Shown here: one piece after another, positions 1,762 to 33,541 of the stretch
How the letters are laid out: every line of letters starts with the position of its first letter
Numbering within the stretch: the first letter of the stretch is position 1
Assembly (NCBI GenBank): GCA_965205675.1
Contig: OZ242186.1
Location: forward strand, 1,472,001 to 1,536,000
Source of the DNA: Nitrosopumilus sp.
GTDB lineage: Archaea; Thermoproteota; Nitrososphaeria; Nitrososphaerales; Nitrosopumilaceae
DNA: 64,000 bases
Reading direction: 5' to 3'
Program-made: the position numbers and the translations under genes
Notes under the pieces: generated by a model
Told to the model about the DNA's origin: nothing
Seen by the model: the letters and a program-made list of their open reading frames with translations, nothing else
The model's database searches: none

Positions 1762-3245
1762 GTAACTGTCTAGAGTTTTGAAGTAAAATCTCCAAGATAT
1801 TCTAAAGAATAATCATGAAAGTTTAATCCTCGTAATCTGCATGTCTCCTTTATACTCATCAGTATCTTATGAGAATCAGCACCATGAATGGTTCTATGAC
1901 CGTTTGTAATTTTACGAATTATCACATTTGGTCTGATTGCCCTCTCTGCTGTGTTATTGTGTGAATCAGTTCCAGTAATTAGGAATGTAAAAAGCATTTC
2001 TCTCTCACGTTTCAATCTTTTTACAAACCTGATACAGTTTTTCTCTGTGTATTTTTTTGATATGATGTGATTAATTCTCCTTTCAAGATTCTTTTTTGCA
2101 TGGATTCTTTCTGATTCTGATTTTATTTTTGCCACACCATGAGAGTCATAAATTATTTTCTTGAGATTCTTGGCAAATGGTGCAAATTCTGGTCCGGGAT
2201 TCTTGTGATTAATGGTATCATTAACCTCTCTGAGATAATGGATGTGACATTTCTGGTGAGTGCTTCCAACATGGTTCCATGCAGGGTACGAATCACTTGT
2301 AATGTTGCCATCATATCCCTTGAGAATTCTCTTGGGAACATCCATTGAACGTGATTTGTCAATCTCGTAAATTACAGTCCATTTACTCACAAATGCCCAC
2401 AACCAGTGGTTCTGGCCATCTACCCTCCAACTTGTCTCATCACCATGTATGTTTAGATCTTCTTTTAACTCCACAATCATTGTATCATATCTGCTCCCAA
2501 ATGCTTTTGATACTATTGATACTGCATGATTAATTGCAGATTCTGTAATGTGCAGTGAGAAGAGCATCTGCAAAAGATGAGATATTTTACCATACGATAA
2601 TCCGATAGTTTTTAGTGATGTGATTAGCACCATGAGCCTAATTCCAAACCTTTCATTTGACAGTACAGTGTGAATGTTACCCGAGATTTGTTTTTTGCAG
2701 TTTGTGCAGTATCGTCTAACTATCGTATATTTTGTCACAACTGCTTTTGCAGGAATGATGTCTTCTACTATTCTGGTGTATGAATCAGTTGGTTCTGAGA
2801 GTGATTTGCCACATGTGTTGCACTCTTTTTGGTCAACTGTAATGGCATCATCAATGTGTGCTGTGCATTTCCAAAGACGCACATAATGGATTTTCTTCTT
2901 TTTGGTCAACTGTAATGGCATCATCAATGTGTGCCCGTCTGCTTCTGCTTTTTCTAGGATGTCTTGATGTTTTCTTCTTTTTTGCAGTTTCAGTCTTGTT
3001 TGGTTTTGCTTTGATATTTCTTGCAACAAGTGTAGACACTGTTTGTTTTAGTTCTGCAATTTCTCTGTGTAGTGATTCAATATCTTTGCGTAACTGACGG
3101 TTTTCTTGCTCCAGCGAGTGACATCTGTTACGATAATATTCCAGCTCATCATATACTGACAATTGTATATTGTAATTTGTCACTGATCAGAAAAGATATA
3201 GATAAAAAATATTAAAGAAAGTACTTCAAAACTCTAGACAGTTAC
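1762..3245 (-). mobile_element. Single-ORF IS66-family element, copy 1, frameshifted by a 73-bp insertion
   Basis: Perfect 24-bp IRs GTAACTGTCTAGAGTTTTGAAGTA; HGDETSW and NNTAERAIRP motifs; nearly identical to 26235-27645 except for the insertion at 2824-2934. Confidence 0.92.
2824..2934. repeat. Repeat-spacer-repeat unit 1 (38-bp duplication, 35-bp insert)
   Basis: TCTTTTTGGTCAACTGTAATGGCATCATCAATGTGTGC at 2824-2861 and 2897-2934. The intact IS66 copy has it once. Confidence 0.95.
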
Positions 3246-3251
3246 AAAAAA

Positions 3252-3410
3252 TGTTGTATCCTAGAATCGGCTCGTCTCTTATTTCACATCATATTCTTCC
3301 CCTGTCTGCTCATCCATAACACCCTTGTTTCCCTTTTCTGGCATCTTTTTCACATTGCTTTTGCAGGTGTCCTTAGATTGTCCCAGTCAAGTAACATATG
3401 CGGTTTTATA
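3252..3410 (-). mobile_element. Degenerate IS481 3' end
   Basis: Similar to 1438-1600 (TGTTGTATCC terminus, EQTGEEYDVK-coding region). Confidence 0.7.
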
Positions 3411-3549
3411 TAATTACTTGATAATAATAATCAGACAAATAATCGAGATTGATGAGAAGGCCAAGTGGAAAACTATTATTCAAAATACTAGTCTACACAA
3501 GGAAAATTCAATTTGAATAAGATCTGTATTTCATATAACCCCTCGAAGA

Positions 3550-3897
3550 TTACATAGAATCGGATTTCTTTTTACTTTTCTGAATCAAAATTTTCTTTAT
3601 TCTAGAAATTGTAGGATAACTGTAACTCCTCCTACGATAATTTGCAATCATAATTTTCCAATTTTTTAATCTCCATTGAGCTTGTTCGGCAGTAACAGAA
3701 TGAACTTCTTTCTGAATGATACTTTTCCTGCCTACTTTTAGAGTTCCAGCATCTTTTGCAGACCATCTATTTTTTGCAAATTTAAGACCAGAAAGGATCT
3801 CAGACACAGGCATTTCTTTGAAATAGGCTTTCAATCTTTTTAATTCTGCATCAGACGGCTTTTTAGAAATTAGTAATTCGATAGTAGACTTTGCCAC
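3550..3897 (-). CDS. Basic hypothetical protein
   Basis: Clean 115-aa ORF with host-like codon usage; no family recognised. Confidence 0.7.
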   Translation of the reverse strand: MAKSTIELLISKKPSDAELKRLKAYFKEMPVSEILSGLKFAKNRWSAKDAGTLKVGRKSIIQKEVHSVTAEQAQWRLKNWKIMIANYRRRSYSYPTISRIKKILIQKSKKKSDSM

Positions 3898-4074
3898 AAT
3901 AAACAGTTCGGGTTATTGCTTAAGAGAATCTTGCTAAAGAATCATTTACTAATTGGTTCTAGTCATGTTTATTTATCAAAAATTGTCATTTTAGGCATGA
4001 GATATGCAATAATCTATGAAAAAATTAATAATTTTGATGTATTGGAGAGTATTGGGATGAGTTGTATGTATGGG

Positions 4075-4395
4075 AAATTGATATTTGTGAAACATTTGAG
4101 CAGGAACTGGTAAAACTAGAGATAAAACACATCATGGCAAGAGTAAACCATCCACAGATAAACGGCAAGCTGGAAAGATTCCACGATGAGATTCAAAGAA
4201 AACAGAAATGGTTTGAGACTGTAGATGAGATGGTCCACTGGTATAACTATATCAAACCACACATGTAACTTGACTGGGATTAATTTTGAGACACCAGCAA
4301 AGACTGCAAGAAAGATGCCAGAGAAAAGAACAAGAGTTGTTGATGAGCAGACAGGAGAAGAGTACGATGCAGAATAAGGGGCGAACTGATTTTGG
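4075..4395 (+). mobile_element. IS481-family fragment (pseudogene)
   Basis: ARVNHPQINGKLERFHDEIQRKQ followed by a premature stop; paralog of 1438-1761. Confidence 0.75.
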
Positions 4396-4397
4396 GA

Positions 4398-4692
4398 AAT
4401 ATCAATTGAAATTCTCAAATATTTCTTTGTAAAGATAATTATTCATTACTTTAGAAATAACAAAAATAATTATTTCCTAGAATGTGTAATTTGATGTACT
4501 TTCCCATCTGCTGATGATTGAAGAGATTTGGAGACAGTGCAAACATGCTAATGTTGAATCAGATTTTTATGAATCTATTCATGAAATGAGGCATACAGTT
4601 ATGGAATATTTTAGAACCCATAAATTTGATTTGAATATGTATCAGTATTTTGCAAGAACAGTGAATTGAAAAGACTTATGATCTGGGGTATA
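4398..4692 (+). mobile_element. Abutting 3' ends of an ISH3-like element and an IS630 element
   Basis: About 4398-4515 is the reverse complement of about 59133-59250; about 4516-4692 matches about 11488-11666, including the IR TTATGATCTGGGGTATA. Confidence 0.8.
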
Positions 4693-4740
4693 AGTATGGT
4701 GAAAATATACTTTTAATAGTTGAATTTAAGATAATTCGTA

Positions 4741-5280
4741 TTGATAGATAAGATTGATGAATTGATAATTTCTGCCCTCTCTCAAAATTCAAAACAAAAA
4801 GTTTTTGAGATTTGGGATTTTTTGAAGGGATTTAATTATGATTTAACAGAAGATGAAATTGAATCAAGAATATCAAAACTTGAAGAAGATAAAATTATTA
4901 AAGGATACACAATAACTGTAGATGCAAAGAAAATTTTACACAAGGTCATACGCGTAGATCTTGTCACGTTTAGGATATCTCAAGCACTTCCAAAAAGAGT
5001 AGATGGATTAAAAAAATATCTCAATGATGCGCCATTTGTTTTATTCTCAGGTAAAACGCGTGGGGGGTATGATTGGATTACAGTAAAATCATTTTTATCA
5101 AACGATATGGCGGATGAAGAAAGTGATATTTATCGAAATTTGTTTGGAGATATTATTCAAACATATGAGGTATATGATTTTGTTCCACAGACAGATGCAT
5201 CAATTTATGCATTAACTTATACAGAAATTGAATATAAAAAATTTCTCAAAGAATGGACACCTCCATTTATTGGATCATAA
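4741..5280 (+). CDS. Lrp/AsnC-family transcriptional regulator
   Basis: DKIDELIISALSQNSK...RISKLEEDKIIKGYT wHTH pattern followed by GGYD in the RAM domain. Confidence 0.8.
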   Translation: MIDKIDELIISALSQNSKQKVFEIWDFLKGFNYDLTEDEIESRISKLEEDKIIKGYTITVDAKKILHKVIRVDLVTFRISQALPKRVDGLKKYLNDAPFVLFSGKTRGGYDWITVKSFLSNDMADEESDIYRNLFGDIIQTYEVYDFVPQTDASIYALTYTEIEYKKFLKEWTPPFIGS

Positions 5281-5281
5281 A

Positions 5282-6118
5282 TTATAACTTTGTTTTTTTA
5301 AAGTGAATTGTCTCATCTATCATTGAATGGGTTTGTAATCTCAAACTCATCAAAAATTTAATCACCTCTGCTCTTTGTTTTGGATTAATTCCATGTGCAT
5401 CTTCTATCAGGTCATCAATTCTTGAAAGCGTAATTTTTAGAGATAAATGAGTTTTTTTTATCAAATTAAGTGCCTTTGAATTTTTGTTAGTAACTTGATT
5501 GTTATTTTTAATCGTTTTTTTGATGACACGGATTTGTTTTACAGTCATCTTTTTGTTGACTATCTCATCTACTAGATCACTATTTTGTGATCCATTAATT
5601 GAAGTTAATTCCAATGCTTGACTTACACTCAAATCATTTTGAAGGATTTTTTCTTGTATATTATTTGAAAGTTTTAAGAGCTGCATTCGATGAGACACAT
5701 ATTCTTCACTCTTTCCAATTTTTTGAGCTAAATCTCTTACTGCTCCCCATCCGTATTCATTTACATATTTTTGGTAAGCTTCTGCCTCCTCTATCGGATC
5801 CATAGATTTTCTCTGAATGTTTTCAGTTAATTGAATCTCATATGCCTGTTTGTCTGTCAAGTCTCGAATTTTACTTGGAATGAATCTCCAACGTAGGGAT
5901 CTACATGCTACATATCTACGATGTCCTGCAACTACCTCAAACCCATGATCAAGAGGTCTAATTACAATTGGTTGCAATAGCCCATGTGTCTTTATGCTAG
6001 ATTTTAGATTTGCTAGTTCTTGAGAATTTGAAGCTGCCATATACCTGACAGGGGATTTTGATGGTCGAATCATTCGAATTTCAATGGGCTCTACAATTGA
6101 ATTATCAATTATTTCCAT
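5282..6118 (-). CDS. ParB/RepB/Spo0J-family protein
   Basis: GLLQPIVIRP, VVAGHRRY, ENIQRKSMDPIEEA and an HTH. Confidence 0.9.
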   Translation of the reverse strand: MEIIDNSIVEPIEIRMIRPSKSPVRYMAASNSQELANLKSSIKTHGLLQPIVIRPLDHGFEVVAGHRRYVACRSLRWRFIPSKIRDLTDKQAYEIQLTENIQRKSMDPIEEAEAYQKYVNEYGWGAVRDLAQKIGKSEEYVSHRMQLLKLSNNIQEKILQNDLSVSQALELTSINGSQNSDLVDEIVNKKMTVKQIRVIKKTIKNNNQVTNKNSKALNLIKKTHLSLKITLSRIDDLIEDAHGINPKQRAEVIKFLMSLRLQTHSMIDETIHFKKTKL

Positions 6119-6537
6119 TTGGAATCCTCATATTCTAAATTGATAAAATGAAAATAGTATTTAACTTTTAATCAAAAAATTACAATAATTTTTAATTGCT
6201 GTTAAATTAATTTTATAATAACTAAAATTTCATAAAATCATCATATAGCGACGATCAAAAGTTCGTAAACATCTTTACAGTATTTCTAAAGATACAATTT
6301 GCAACATCAATCTTGAATCTTGTCATTCTAAAATATTTTGACACTGTATCATTTATCGTAAACATTGTATAATATTCTGAAACCTGCAACGCATACTTGC
6401 TTATCTTCCAGCATTGTTCTATCATGTTCTTCAAGTACGGCGATCCTTTTGGCAACCATATTAGTTTGACATCTCTATTGTTTGCAAGATATTCTTTTAC
6501 TTTTTTTGATTTGTGAACTGATGCTCAGTATAGCATG

Positions 6538-6632
6538 ATTGCAATCTTGCCATATTTCCAGTGCGACCTTGGAGCATGAAGTAGCTCACGCCAACTTTGA
6601 CAATTGCAATCTTGCCATATTTCCAGTGCGAC
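6538..6632. repeat. Repeat-spacer-repeat unit 2 (30-bp duplication, 35-bp insert)
   Basis: ATTGCAATCTTGCCATATTTCCAGTGCGAC at 6538-6567 and 6603-6632. Confidence 0.93.
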
Positions 6633-6940
6633 TCCTTTAGATATTCTACAAATCTTCCAGCATTGAATCTGTCATAAATTTTAAACAGCTGATTGTTATT
6701 TTCCATAATTGTTCCATACTGCCAAACTTTCATGATTGCCTAGGTATGAAAGAAATATTCTCTTGGCAACTGGTGACTGGGTATTTTTTCCTGTCTTTGT
6801 ATCCCTTAGAAAAAATGCCTCATCAGCCATTGCAATGACAAATCCTTCTTTTTTAGGCGTAAAATTCTCTTTCTGATGCGTTGCTGCCAGCTTTTCACAG
6901 CAGATACGCTTGCATGGTGGATGTGATATTTTTGTGCAGT

Positions 6941-7080
6941 AGATGTCTTGCGTAATTATTTCTAGGCGTGAATTTTGCTGCAGGATTTTTCAAATTGGTT
7001 GAGAAATTTGAATTTTCAGGTATGAATTCTGTTAAAATACAAAATTTGAGAAAAAATCTCTATAATTACGCAAGAGGTCT
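6941..7080. mobile_element. 140-bp MITE, copy 1
   Basis: IRs AGATGTCTTGCGTAATTA / TAATTACGCAAGAGGTCT; 3-bp TSD AGT; near-identical to 43278-43417. Confidence 0.9.
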
Positions 7081-7352
7081 AGTTTTTGCAGATATCCTAC
7101 TGGTGCATTATCTTTCTGATGTGAGTAATGTGAAATTTCACTCCAGTGGAATAAGATATTGCTTGCTGTAGCATCACAGGCGTAAACAAAGTTAGCATTG
7201 CCTTTGAGATGATACAGTCCGTTTTCTTCTTTGAAATTGTTCTTGGTCTTCCACTCCTTGGATGGTCGTAGAGGCCATCGATTTCAAAACAATTCACTCA
7301 TTTTCGTACCCAGATTGTGCAGTGTCTTTGCAGTGTGTTCTATTTCCTTACC

Positions 7353-7462
7353 ATCTTTTAGAATCATCAATACTGCCAAGCATTCTTACCTCTAGTCAGA
7401 ATTTCTTGATGTCGTTGGATTAATTATCTTTTAGAATCATCAATACTGCCAAGCATTCTTAC
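7353..7462. repeat. Repeat-spacer-repeat unit 3 (37-bp duplication, 36-bp insert)
   Basis: ATCTTTTAGAATCATCAATACTGCCAAGCATTCTTAC at 7353-7389 and 7426-7462. Confidence 0.95.
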
Positions 7463-7650
7463 TGCAACTTTTGAATTTTTTGTAATGCTGCTTTCAAGGG
7501 ATTCTAACTTCCATGTATTTTGTTGGGTTGACTGATCAAAAGGTTTTTTGTTTTGGAATTATTTAGTTCACGAACTTTGTCTTTTCGCTATACAATACTA
7601 TTGATTTGACATGAGGATCATTCTAATACATCATTTCTCAAAGAATCCTG

Positions 7651-26234: not shown

Positions 26235-27645
26235 GTAACTGTCTAGAGTTTTGAAGTACTTTCTTTAATATTTTTTATCTATATCTTTTCTGATCAGTGA
26301 CAAATTACAATATACAATTGTCAGTATATGATGAGCTGGAATATTATCGTAACAGATGTCACTCGCTGGAGCAAGAAAACCGTCAGTTACGCAAAGATAT
26401 TGAATCACTACACAGAGAAATTGCAGAACTAAAACAAACAGTGTCTACACTTGTTGCAAGAAATATCAAAGCAAAACCAAACAAGACTGAAACTGCAAAA
26501 AAGAAGAAAACATCAAGACATCCTAGAAAAAGCAGAAGCAGACGGGCACACATTGATGATGCCATTACAGTTGACCAAAAAGAGTGCAACACATGTGGCA
26601 AATCACTCTCAGAACCAACTGATTCATACACCAGAATAGTAGAAGACATCATTCCTGCAAAAGCAGTTGTGACAAAATATACGATAGTTAGACGATACTG
26701 CACAAACTGCAAAAAACAAATCTCGGGTAACATTCACACTGTACTGTCAAATGAAAGGTTTGGAATTAGGCTCATGGTGCTAATCACATCACTAAAAACT
26801 ATCGGATTATCGTATGGTAAAATATCTCATCTTTTGCAGATGCTCTTCTCACTGCACATTACAGAATCTGCAATTAATCATGCAGTATCAATAGTATCAA
26901 AAGCATTTGGGAGCAGATATGATACAATGATTGTGGAGTTAAAAGAAGATCTAAACATACATGGTGATGAGACAAGTTGGAGGGTAGATGGCCAGAACCA
27001 CTGGTTGTGGGCATTTGTGAGTAAATGGACTGTAATTTACGAGATTGACAAATCACGTTCAATGGATGTTCCCAAGAGAATTCTCAAGGGATATGATGGC
27101 AACATTACAAGTGATTCGTACCCTGCATGGAACCATGTTGGAAGCACTCACCAGAAATGTCACATCCATTATCTCAGAGAGGTTAATGATACCATTAATC
27201 ACAAGAATCCCGGACCAGAATTTGCACCATTTGCCAAGAATCTCAAGAAAATAATTTATGATTCTCATGGTGTGGCAAAAATAAAATCAGAATCAGAAAG
27301 AATCCATGCAAAAAAGAATCTTGAAAGGAGAATTAATCACATCATATCAAAAAAATACACAGAGAAAAACTGTATCAGGTTTGTAAAAAGATTGAAACGT
27401 GAGAGAAAAATGCTTTTTACATTCCTAATTACTGGAACTGATTCACACAATAACACAGCAGAGAGGGCAATCAGACCAAATGTGATAATTCGTAAAATTA
27501 CAAACGGTCATAGAACCATTCATGGTGCTGATTCTCATAAGATACTGATGAGTATAAAGGAGACATGCAGATTACGAGGATTAAACTTTCATGATTATTC
27601 TTTAGAATATCTTGGAGATTTTACTTCAAAACTCTAGACAGTTAC
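26235..27645 (+). mobile_element. Single-ORF IS66-family element, copy 2, intact (transposase 26297-27637)
   Basis: Perfect 24-bp IRs; coiled coil, zinc finger and DDE domain in one 446-aa ORF. Confidence 0.93.
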
Positions 27646-32594: not shown

Positions 32595-33527
32595 ATGTTT
32601 GCAGTGTGGTTTAGGGTAATTCGCATACGTTTTCTATTAGCATCTGTTATTGCTGTATCCGTAGGACTGTCTCTGAATTGGTGGCAGCACTCTTCAATAG
32701 ATTTGATGGATGCACTTCTTACTTTTGGAGGTGTTATGGCACTTCATACTAGTGTTGATTTATTAAATGATTTTTGGGATTTTAAACGCGGTATTGACAC
32801 TGCAACAAAAAGAACAAAAATGAGTGGCGGTACTGGCGTACTGCCTGAAGGCTTGCTTACACCCTCTTCTGTTTATCGTGCTGGTATTGCATTTTTAATA
32901 ATTGGATCTATGATTGGCAGTTACTTTGTTATTACTGATGGCATCACCATTGCCATAATTCTCGGGTTTGCAATCTTATCTATTTATTTTTACTCTACTA
33001 AAATCATTGACTCTGGTTTGGGGGAATTTTTTGTGGCTGTAAAAGGTGCAATGATTGTCATTGGAACTTTTTTTATTCAATCTGGGCAAATTTCTGTAGA
33101 ATCTATCCTTGCCGGAATTTCTGTAGGATCTCTTTCTGCACTAGTATTGTTTATTGCATCTTTTCCTGATCATGATGCAGACAAGTCCAAAGGCAGAAAA
33201 ACTTTGGTGATTGTAGTAGGAAAACAAAAAGCTGCGAAGTTATTTTGGGTTTTTCCTTTAGTTTCTTATTTGGCAATAATCATTGGTGTTGCTACCACCC
33301 TTTTTCCAGTATTTTCTTTGATCAGCTTATTTAGCATCCCACTCATGATAAAATCGGGATTTGGATTACAGAAAAATTACAATTTTGTAAACGATCTTGT
33401 CCCATACATGTCTACAACTTTGATGTTTAGCAGAGTTACTGGAGCGTTGTTTGTGATTGGATTTTTAATTTCTGTCATGTGTAATCAGTTTTTCGATAGC
33501 TTCTTGTTACTGGAGCGTTGTTTGTGA
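32595..33527 (+). CDS. UbiA/MenA-family prenyltransferase with altered C-terminus
   Basis: NDFWDFKRGID and DHDADKSKGRKTL aspartate motifs; the original end GFLIGM* survives at 33550, after the duplication. Confidence 0.88.
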   Translation: MFAVWFRVIRIRFLLASVIAVSVGLSLNWWQHSSIDLMDALLTFGGVMALHTSVDLLNDFWDFKRGIDTATKRTKMSGGTGVLPEGLLTPSSVYRAGIAFLIIGSMIGSYFVITDGITIAIILGFAILSIYFYSTKIIDSGLGEFFVAVKGAMIVIGTFFIQSGQISVESILAGISVGSLSALVLFIASFPDHDADKSKGRKTLVIVVGKQKAAKLFWVFPLVSYLAIIIGVATTLFPVFSLISLFSIPLMIKSGFGLQKNYNFVNDLVPYMSTTLMFSRVTGALFVIGFLISVMCNQFFDSFLLLERCL

Positions 33528-33541
33528 TTGGATTTTTAATT
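33435..33541. repeat. Repeat-spacer-repeat unit 5 (36-bp duplication, 35-bp insert)
   Basis: GTTACTGGAGCGTTGTTTGTGATTGGATTTTTAATT at 33435-33470 and 33506-33541. Confidence 0.95.

Follow-up and report, generated by a model that had tools for sequence, protein, structure and literature searches.

A 73 bp insertion in an IS66-family element

What placed 73 bp inside a transposase gene of Nitrosopumilus, a marine archaeon that oxidises ammonia, duplicating 38 bp of the target and leaving 35 nt that are found nowhere else in the genome? The window analysed is 64,000 nt in length (contig OZ242186.1, nt 1472001 – 1536000) and contains both the interrupted IS66-family element, copy 1, which is flanked by other multi-copy elements, and an intact copy of the same IS (Table 1). 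The intact IS is 1411 bp long and its 446 aa ORF carries the Pfam domains DDE_Tnp_IS66 (2.9e-32) and zf-IS66, while copy 1 has a length of 1484 bp (1411 + 73). By blastn the two differ at 2 positions over 1100 bp and at none over a further 349 bp, which bears out the near-identity described in an earlier note on this DNA. The claim of that note that a 38-mer occurs once in the intact copy and twice in copy 1 was confirmed by exact matching. The two occurrences in copy 1 are 100% identical and lie 73 nt apart, start to start, so the insertion consists of 38 + 35 nt, or of 37 + 36 nt if one end base of the duplication matches by chance; by identity its length is exactly 38, as the bases beyond both copies differ. 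The added length of 73 is not divisible by 3, so the transposase ORF is split, and the frameshift reported earlier is seen as the breakage of the 446 aa ORF into ORFs of 110 and 419 aa.

The empty allele was said to be present in the same window, and the single 38-mer of the intact copy was indeed located there. When the comparison was extended to all genomic copies of the IS, as the earlier note had suggested, the 38-mer was found at 25 places, two of them in copy 1 and one in each of 23 other IS copies. All five full IS copies found in the congener G143 also have the empty form of the site. The empty form of the IS is widespread among contigs assembled from four public sequencing runs.

The 35 nt insert has a G+C content of 37%. 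Even when as many as 3 mismatches are tolerated, it has a single occurrence in the window (0 of 100 shuffled sequences gave a match), and it is likewise found once in the 2.01 Mb genome, where the longest second match is 14 nt; the absence of a second copy had been claimed, as had that of terminal inverted repeats, and both statements hold, only an internal stem of 5 bp being present. The longest word that it has in common with the surrounding DNA (1 kb on each side) is 9 nt, which is also the null median, and tandem duplication or replication slippage was rejected on this ground, as the insert was not copied from adjacent DNA. An ordinary IS or MITE was also rejected, as there are no terminal inverted repeats, no several copies and no short target duplication. 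An archaeal bulge-helix-bulge intron was considered and set aside as well, the sense-strand RNA fold giving z = 0.40 and no helix that joins the two junctions; RNA structure of any other kind was likewise absent, and no Rfam family reached its gathering score in the window.

Table 1. Positions (nt of the window) of the interrupted and intact IS66-family copies and of the insertion units
Feature	Position	Strand	Basis or context
IS66-family insertion sequence, copy 1, 1484 bp, inside other repeated elements	1762..3245	-	blastn of intact copy against genome
Duplicated 38 nt target, first copy	2824..2861		exact repeat
Spacer-like 35 nt insert, genome-unique, 37% G+C, no template within 1 kb	2862..2896		sequence searches
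Duplicated 38 nt target, second copy	2897..2934		exact repeat
N-terminal transposase fragment ORF, 110 aa	2851..3183	-	ORF prediction
C-terminal transposase fragment ORF, 419 aa	1770..3029	-	ORF prediction
Intact IS copy, 1411 bp, with 446 aa transposase ORF (26297..27637); empty allele	26235..27645	+	blastn, Pfam
Single 38-mer in intact IS (empty target site)	26546..26583	-	exact match
Second unit: 30 bp duplication, 35 nt insert, 30 bp	6538..6632		decayed copy of another multi-copy IS
Third unit: 37 bp duplication, 36 nt insert, 37 bp	7353..7462		same decayed IS as second unit
Fourth unit: 36 bp duplication, 35 nt insert, 36 bp	33435..33541		extreme 3' end of UbiA-family prenyltransferase gene

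Similar units elsewhere in the chromosome

A genome-wide search for non-tandem, two-copy exact repeats with periods of 40 to 200 nt recovered 20 cases, 12 of which have periods between 64 and 73. With relaxed matching, the chromosome holds 13 two-copy units including the focal one, and for 9 of the 13 a homologous site was found that spans both junctions and lacks the insert. The units fall into two classes by length of duplication, four with 30 bp and nine, among them the focal unit, with 36 – 39 bp (hereafter the ~37 bp class). Insert lengths range from 32 to 37 nt in both classes. All 13 inserts differ from each other, and none has more than 10 nt in common with its 1 kb surroundings (null median 9). 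The C1:1774800 insert agrees, without a mismatch, with five copies of a tandem gene situated 430 kb away. The inserts are captured DNA and not the product of local repair. The units occupy IS copies, gene ends, intergenic DNA and a redundant tRNA gene, and near essential genes they are placed at gene ends or between genes.

The four 30 bp units (C1:98273, 199961, 439378 and 1478538) resemble the 30 nt repeat of the type I-B CRISPR array of this chromosome (see below). In register, their sites match the repeat at 15, 18, 19 and 18 of 30 positions, a sum of 70 against a background of 49.2 ± 3.3 that none of 2000 random sets reached; the second unit of Table 1 accounts for one match of 19/30. The duplication begins with G in all four, and three have the end TTGnAAT. 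The focal site, in contrast, matches the I-B repeat at 14 of 30 positions at best, which is the background level. Within the ~37 bp class, TTGA, the core of the ATTGAAAT end of the I-B repeat, is found at duplication positions 20 – 30 in six of the nine sites (background 0.196, p = 0.003, a post hoc value).

CRISPR systems of the chromosome and of related genomes

The resident type I-B locus has the order array, cas4, cas1, cas2, an inserted IS, cas3, cas5, cas7, cas8b and cas6. Its array consists of 12 repeats of 30 nt separated by spacers of 34 – 37 nt, and the adjoining cas4-cas1-cas2 genes are the sole adaptation module on the chromosome. The focal insert is thus of spacer length (35 nt vs 34 – 37 nt), while the focal duplication of 38 (or 37) bp does not correspond to the resident repeat of 30 nt, which four other units do match. 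Six I-B arrays, with 503 spacer units between them, contain no unit in which the duplication is longer by 7 nt (37 nt in all); I-B integrases are precise on their own arrays.

Congeners carry two further systems with 37 nt repeats, one encoding Cas1, Cas2 and Cas4 and the other a Cas4-Cas1 fusion, with spacer modes of 35 – 37 nt and array periods of 72 – 74, as compared with duplications of 36 – 39 bp and periods of 70 – 73 in the ~37 bp class. At 30 and ~37 bp, the two duplication classes of this chromosome have the same lengths as the two kinds of CRISPR repeat found in the genus. Systems with 37 nt repeats are present in G009, G014, G051 and G165, and as relics in G163, where remnants of both lie beside the I-B locus; the I-B Cas1 of G163 is the closest found to the resident one (92%). 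On the chromosome studied here there is no second cas1, no homologue of the Cas1 or other cas genes of the 37 nt systems, and no relic of a 37 nt repeat, the best match (26/37) being at chance level. The assembly consists of the chromosome, and extrachromosomal elements of the organism lie outside it. The nine ~37 bp sites show no resemblance to either 37 nt repeat (p = 0.26 and 0.64), nor to the repeat variant of G165 (p = 0.27).

Units of the same kind were surveyed in 800 kb each of G143, G163 and G165. The G165 segment, in which an intact 37 nt array adjoins a gene of the size of a Cas4-Cas1 fusion, contains at least 18 units, comprising at least 12 with duplications of 35 – 39 bp, 4 with 43 – 54 bp and 2 with 30 bp. 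Its sites show a marginal resemblance to the 37 nt repeat (p = 0.045). Two or three units of the ~37 bp class were found in G163. In G143 there is a single, recent unit (37 + 33) with an empty paralogue that is 97 – 98% identical, and this genome has no cas1, no 37 nt repeat and no CRISPR repeats at all. Per 800 kb, the ~37 bp class thus numbers at least 12 in G165, about 3.6 on the chromosome studied here (G000), 2 – 3 in G163 and 1 in G143, figures that come from four related genomes and are uncontrolled for IS load. Cas loci in the genus are visibly decaying, with an IS inside the operon here and only relics of the 37 nt systems in G163, so that a recent loss of cas genes can explain the situation in G143. 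Frames of 409 – 442 aa, the size of a casposase, represent further Cas1 genes in the genus.

Sources of the inserts

No protospacer of the focal insert was found in its own genome, in 150 other genomes of the genus, in viral and metagenome contigs or in phage records. Exact scans of viral_contigs and of metagenome_contigs with the 35-mer each returned 0 matches, and blastn of nt 2700 – 7500 of the window against phage records gave chance matches only (E = 0.4). The only matches among the 150 genomes that touch the insert reach 81 – 83% over 36 nt; they span the junction of duplication and insert, running into a conserved gene of five genomes, and are read as chance. Three further inserts or spacers likewise had 0 exact matches in viral_contigs, and spacers did not match the loci that were retrieved. 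Since no protospacer was found, no PAM can be read for the focal insert, and the five inserts with known sources have no PAM-like flanking motif in common. Array spacers of three systems lack a strong end bias, for which reason the inserts cannot be oriented.

G163 (43/45) and G165 likewise have inserts that derive from the genome of the host. In one G163 unit the match to the source continues into the duplicated target, by 1 nt and by 5/6 nt, and this may represent junction microhomology.

Probable origin of the insertion

The earlier note implied a spacer-like integration, and this has become the best-supported reading, given a type I-B adaptation module and 12 further units of like construction in the genome. 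We put the probability that a CRISPR integrase made the focal unit, by natural off-target Cas1-Cas2 spacer integration, at roughly 0.75. A Cas1-Cas2-type integrase loaded with a prespacer of ~35 bp would attack the IS66 transposase gene on both strands, with 37 – 38 bp separating the two attacks, and each 3' end of the prespacer would become joined to one strand. Gap filling would then copy the 37 – 38 bp between the points of attack, giving the order target copy, spacer, target copy. Both the agent, a Cas1-Cas2, and the particular Cas1-Cas2 concerned are what we infer from these footprints. Most likely the unit is selectively neutral, a scar that has killed one of ~25 IS copies, and it is probably not a working mini-array. 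The phenomenon is known from the laboratory, and the unit would be a new natural example of it.

If a CRISPR integrase was responsible, its likeliest source, with odds of about even, is a system with a 37 nt repeat that the chromosome lacks today, either lost or carried on an unassembled element. The resident type I-B Cas4-Cas1-Cas2 could also have produced the unit, provided that it uses two off-target registers, 30 bp at repeat-like sites and ~37 bp elsewhere, a proposal nested within the preferred reading that differs only in the acting integrase. Its standing as the sole adaptation module, the agreement between insert lengths in both classes and the spacers of its array, and the TTGA found in six of nine ~37 bp sites all speak for it. 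That motif, however, shifts in position by 10 nt and anchors neither cut, the 503 I-B spacer units include no case of a 37 nt duplication, G143 has a ~37 bp unit without any cas1, and the class is commonest in G165, where a 37 nt system is intact. Off-target pairs of the Pyrococcus furiosus enzyme are, in the available text of that report, given at 30 – 31 bp only (PMC6698737). A second register of the resident enzyme is, among CRISPR integrases, the doubtful candidate, and we hold it to be rather unlikely overall; the resident integrase is probably not the maker, because its repeat is 30 nt and not 37 – 38.

The G143 unit also bears on proposals that dispense with Cas1. A staggered break with overhangs of 36 – 38 nt, capture of a ~35 nt fragment and fill-in would add ~72 nt, and such a process would be in keeping with a recent unit in a genome devoid of cas1 and CRISPR repeats, with a focal site that resembles no repeat, and with the possible microhomology in G163. 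We know of no described Cas1-free mechanism that adds ~72 nt, and, to our knowledge, Cas1-Cas2 is the only enzyme that leaves such a footprint, which counts against this proposal. It is further opposed by duplications whose two lengths are those of the CRISPR repeats in the genus, inserts of spacer length, a frequency that, among the four genomes compared, peaks where the 37 nt system is intact (G165), and a 30 bp class that copies features of the I-B repeat, while G143 is explicable by recent cas loss; we judge it improbable. Equally small is the chance that the ~37 bp class as a whole, adding ~72 nt even without cas1 (G143), owes nothing to a cell-encoded CRISPR integrase and was produced by some DNA-capture process not yet described, or else by an integrase whose mobile element escaped assembly.

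An artefact in a chromosome assembled from metagenomic data is brought to mind by the label 'MAG' on records of relatives and by contigs of four public runs (4 studies; the best runs contain 0.59 – 0.68 of the sampled words), all of which lack the 73 bp. Such an outcome is to be expected and carries no weight as a test, because the assembly of short reads merges the 25 copies of an IS into whichever form predominates. Units built alike occur in four separate assemblies, their inserts all differ and some are exact copies of distant genes, each has an exact target duplication, and those near essential genes lie at gene ends or in intergenic DNA, all of which makes an artefact highly improbable. 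That the 35-mer is itself a very small, MITE-like mobile element generating long target duplications is scarcely credible, as the genome has no second copy of it and it was missing from 150 congeneric genomes, from phage records and (by exact search) from viral and metagenome contigs; it also lacks terminal inverted repeats and is one of 13 inserts that all differ.

Significance and comparison with known systems

Demonstrations of off-target spacer integration come mainly from over-expressed Cas1-Cas2 of Escherichia coli and from in vitro work, and a literature search found no natural genome-wide survey of it. Here, a wild archaeal chromosome would carry 13 fixed events, mostly with empty alleles, and 800 kb of a congener at least 18. 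If so, the units provide a natural read-out of the rulers of the integrases (30 bp vs ~37 bp) and a view of the kinds of site, enumerated above for this chromosome, at which selection tolerates insertions. They could also serve as raw material for the origin of new CRISPR arrays, and self-derived spacers, which inside a genuine array would be autoimmune, are retained at these places. In genome annotation, the units would account for otherwise puzzling insertions of 65 and 72 bp that break genes.

With an ordinary IS or MITE the focal unit has in common a gene-breaking insertion and a direct target duplication; it differs in the unique insert of 35 nt, the lack of inverted repeats and of a transposase, and a duplication of 38 bp instead of a few bp. 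Casposases are homologues of Cas1, and the casposons that they mobilise are kilobase-sized, with terminal inverted repeats and target duplications of ~14 – 15 bp. The likeness to casposons lies in a Cas1-family integrase, as proposed here, that leaves a target duplication, and in the casposase-sized Cas1 genes of the genus, whereas the single Cas1 match in this genome is the CRISPR one.

A closer parallel comes from the type I-E Cas1-Cas2 of E. coli, for which Nivala, Shipman and Church (2018, Nat Microbiol) reportedly observed off-target spacer integration that gives rise to 'neo-CRISPR' loci. Common to those loci and the focal unit are a spacer-sized insert outside arrays, a target duplication of repeat-like length, and the fact that genes can be struck. 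While the E. coli loci arose with over-expressed Cas1-Cas2 and supplied oligonucleotides, the units described here are many, fixed, and in a natural archaeal genome, and the focal one combines a duplication of 37 – 38 bp with a resident repeat of 30 nt and a site that is not repeat-like. The natural evidence of Nivala et al. is described in 10.1101/148544 as 'circumstantial' and as drawn from two species.

For the type I-B Cas1-Cas2 of P. furiosus, the available text of Grainy et al. (2019) describes paired in vitro integrations on opposite strands 30 – 31 bp apart, at off-target sites that have bases in common with the repeat and prefer G at the integration point (PMC6698737). Unlike that work, which was performed in vitro with plasmids and whose available text reports no ~37 bp class, the focal unit belongs to just such a class. 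The four 30 bp units of this chromosome, on the other hand, resemble the P. furiosus events, as far as that text describes them, in their spacing, their likeness to the repeat and their G.

Spacer-like insertion in an IS66-family element

The interrupted element is a 1411-bp IS66-family insertion sequence with one ORF of 446 aa (Pfam DDE_Tnp_IS66, 2.9e-32, and zf-IS66), present in the genome (2,011,361 bp, 33.7% G+C, one contig) as 23 uninterrupted and two interrupted copies. The earlier note described identical 38-mers around a 35-nt insert in IS copy 1 (window 1762–3245), adding 73 bp and frameshifting the transposase, with a nearly identical empty allele in the same window (26235–27645), and it was correct on all points: the two copies differ by two mismatches in 1411 bp and by the 73-bp insertion, which cuts the ORF into pieces of 110 and 419 aa. 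The 38-mer occurs at 25 genomic places, twice in copy 1 and once in each of 23 other copies, while the insert occurs once, both in the window (up to three mismatches permitted) and in the whole genome. Because the duplication is exact and copy 1 is 99.9% identical to the intact copy, the event is recent, and its sole evident effect is the inactivation of one IS copy. The unit is not expected to yield a crRNA, since its duplicated segment does not resemble a repeat and its sense RNA shows no special fold.

Related units in the genome

A first scan for exact direct repeats 40–130 bp apart returned many repeat-insert-repeat units outside the CRISPR array. A refined filter (exact core ≥24 nt, unrelated spacer ≥20 nt, arrays left out) gave 20 two-copy repeats at periods (start-to-start distances) of 40–200, 12 of them at 64–73, and when a few mismatches were permitted 13 units were recognised, in two length classes (see table; C1 is the chromosome, of which the window is 1472001–1536000). 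Four of the 13 fall in the window, all of them inside 31 kb of an IS-dense stretch (window 1–34000) that may be a hot spot or simply a region tolerant of insertions.

Coordinates of the focal unit, the related units and the resident CRISPR array
Feature	Position	Remarks
First copy of 38-mer	window 2824–2861	identical to 2897–2934
35-nt insert	window 2862–2896	between the two 38-mers
Second copy of 38-mer	window 2897–2934	identical to 2824–2861
Units with 30-bp duplication (n=4)	C1:98273, 199961, 439378, 1478538	inserts 34–37 nt
Units with 36–39-bp duplication (n=9)	C1:541166, 732792, 1247936, 1474824 (focal), 1479353, 1505435, 1599699, 1704607, 1774762	inserts 32–36 nt, periods 70–73
CRISPR array	C1:698253–699002	12 repeats of 30 nt, spacers 34–37 nt; sole array on chromosome

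Each site was rebuilt in its empty form, with the insert and one duplicate removed, and searched against the genome and all fetched loci. Nine of the 13 units have an empty homologue (at least one match spanning both junctions by at least 25 nt); none was found in these sequences for C1:199961, 732792, 1247936 and 1599699. For a unit in a UbiA-family gene, relatives align in two parts whose subject ranges overlap by ~35 bp. The same pattern is seen at window 6538 and 7353, where the comparison is with copies of a different IS in G143 (the closest relative found), at C1:439378 (with congeners G163 and G165) and at a unit in a tRNA gene (with G143). This overlap agrees with the empty-site test that the units are insertions.

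Most units lie in or adjoin multi-copy elements, and those near single-copy genes occupy tolerated places. The UbiA-family prenyltransferase gene carries its unit (36+35+36, i.e. duplication, insert, duplication; window 33435–33541) in its last codons, where relatives have an empty site; the stop-to-stop frame is 313 aa with the insert vs 297 aa without, the C-terminal tail alone being changed. Other units are found at the 3' end of a Shikimate_DH-domain gene, in the intergenic stretch that separates PCNA from a TFS-like gene, and in a tRNA-Phe(GAA) gene, of which five are predicted; yet another adds 72 nt in frame to a 240-aa ORF. The tRNA unit (37+35+37, C1:541136–541310, locus L039 571–709) parts the first 5 nt of the gene from the rest, and the anticodon loop of this gene, ATTGAAA, resembles the 3' end of the CRISPR repeat. 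At window 6244–7600 a different multi-copy IS (~25 copies in G143) is present as a decayed copy with units 30+35 (6538) and 37+36 (7353); this copy also contains a ~141-bp insertion at ~6940–7081 that has copies of its own elsewhere in G143 and looks MITE-like.

The inserts behave like spacers. None of the 13 has a template within 1 kb, and they have no hairpin in common. Their G+C ranges from 27% to 63%, and array spacers of the genus average 38–52% in genomes of ~34%. Twelve of 13 are unique in the genome, and the remaining one, at C1:1774800 (unit C1:1774762–1774869; 32–34 nt), has exact counterparts in five copies of a 1.9-kb tandem repeat gene (C1:1337331–1344897); this match may extend by 2 nt, giving a duplication of 36–38 bp. 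In a functional array, such a self-derived 'spacer' would cause autoimmunity. Three inserts in G165 likewise match host or orthologous chromosomal DNA. The 38-nt insert of a G163 unit (C1:1832071–1832182) matches its host genome (~1299144) at 43 of 45 positions, and the match enters the duplicated target by 1 nt and 5/6 nt, which may be junction microhomology or chance. No protospacer of the focal insert was found in its own genome, viral contigs, metagenome contigs, phage records or 150 further genomes of the genus; viral contigs likewise gave no exact match to three more inserts or spacers, and no PAM was derivable from array-spacer ends or from the flanks of inserts with known source.

CRISPR-Cas systems of the genome and the genus

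The array has its leader side towards cas4-cas1-cas2, followed by an IS630-like transposase gene and then, on the opposite strand, cas3, cas5, cas7, cas8b and cas6, a gene order that identifies a type I-B layout. The transposase gene (DDE_3; C1:701265–702263, locus L002 15265–16263) is inserted between cas2 and cas3, the adaptation genes are intact frames, and urease accessory genes adjoin the locus. An orphan mini-array far from the cas locus (C1:9808–9905, locus L045) consists of a 38-nt spacer between two degenerate I-B-like repeats, which share 27 and 25 of 30 positions with the consensus I-B repeat of congener G009.

Throughout the genomes checked (G009, G014, G017, G048, G163), Cas1 proteins 70–92% identical to the resident Cas1 adjoin 30-nt-repeat arrays. 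Two other systems of the genus have 37-nt repeats: the first has Cas1, Cas2 and Cas4 (G014), the second a 571-aa Cas4-Cas1 fusion (G009, G014, G051, G165). Of eight genomes with an I-B-like Cas1, four (G009, G014, G165 and, by frame size alone, G164) contain a fusion-sized Cas1 frame as well. In G163, whose I-B Cas1 is the closest (92%), relics of both 37-nt systems flank the I-B locus (C1:2045082–2046299, 2066162–2066196), namely a truncated second cas1 and one repeat of each type (85% and 94% identical to the first and second, respectively).

Units were counted with the same filter in 800 kb each of G143, G163 and G165. G165, in which an intact 37-nt array adjoins the fusion-sized cas1 and the I-B array repeat is the same as in the source genome, has 12 units with duplications of 35–39 bp, four with 43–54 bp and two with 30 bp, plus one coding repeat; an empty homologue is present for five of the 18 units among the genome and fetched loci. 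The long duplications (43+32, 46+34, 49+29 and 54+35, in C1:600001–1400000) imply that the ruler, i.e. the spacing of the two attack points of the integrase, has a tail. G163 has three units (37+38, 34+39, 30+32). G143, with which IS copies are shared at 99–100% identity, lacks both cas1 and any 37-nt repeat, and carries one 37+33 unit with an empty paralogue 97–98% identical. These counts, from four related genomes in which IS load is a confounder, fit a promiscuous integrase with a 37-nt ruler in direction; the G143 unit is the main misfit, unless that lineage lost the system recently.

Origin of the units

The focal unit is one member of a family with unusually many representatives in this genus, and it was probably (about 0.75) made by a CRISPR integrase in a natural, recent off-target integration, i.e. 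the pasting of a spacer outside an array. A Cas1-Cas2 integrase would join both 3' ends of a prespacer of ~35 bp to opposite strands 37–38 bp apart, and gap repair would copy this interval into a target duplication. A process independent of Cas1 is improbable, and an artefact is less probable still. Contigs of four public runs from four studies all skip exactly these 73 bp, which confirms the empty allele in nature, and a single insert-bearing copy among 25 is beyond their reach. Least credible is that the 35-mer is a tiny mobile element, the 13 inserts all being different from one another.

If a CRISPR integrase was responsible, its most likely source, at roughly even odds, is a 37-nt-repeat system that the chromosome no longer has, whether lost or carried on an unassembled element. 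A 37-nt repeat and the spacer modes of these systems (35 nt for the first, 35–37 nt for the second, 36 nt for I-B) give 72–74 bp per added spacer, the period of the ~37-bp class. The chromosome itself has no relic of either 37-nt repeat, no second cas1 and, by tblastn searches using ORFs from the CRISPR loci of five relatives, no cas genes other than I-B. Type I-B systems occur on thaumarchaeal mobile elements, according to the portion of Krupovic et al. 2019 (PMC6563490) drawn on here, so that their gain and loss is plausible. That the resident I-B enzyme, the one Cas1 match in the genome, acted in a second register is unlikely: on their own arrays I-B integrases show a 37-nt slip in 0 of 503 units. 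The nine ~37-bp-class sites, the focal one included, match neither the I-B repeat nor either 37-nt repeat of congeners. Six of these nine have TTGA at duplication positions 20–30 (background 0.196; p = 0.003, for a test window picked post hoc), its position varying by 10 nt. All six TTGA-bearing sites have one orientation relative to the chromosomal plus strand, which the array shares with three of the four sites of the 30-bp class.

Sites of the 30-bp class resemble the I-B repeat. In one orientation and at offset 0 they match it at 15, 18, 19 and 18 of 30 positions, a sum of 70 vs 49.2 +/- 3.3 at random sites that was reached by none of 2000 random sets; all four start with G and three end in TTGnAAT, as does the repeat. 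This class points to the resident integrase.

Off-target spacer integration in vivo was reportedly described by Nivala et al. 2018, to whom citing papers attribute it. Natural evidence, as characterised in the relevant passage of one such paper (10.1101/148544), is circumstantial and comes from two species. In the literature searched, no description was found of many fixed natural events in one genome, nor of two ruler classes. Pyrococcus furiosus Cas1-Cas2 in vitro, as presented in the part of Grainy et al. (PMC6698737) consulted, used non-CRISPR pairs 30–31 bp apart, with repeat resemblance and a preference for G, and the 30-bp class described here is alike in all three respects.
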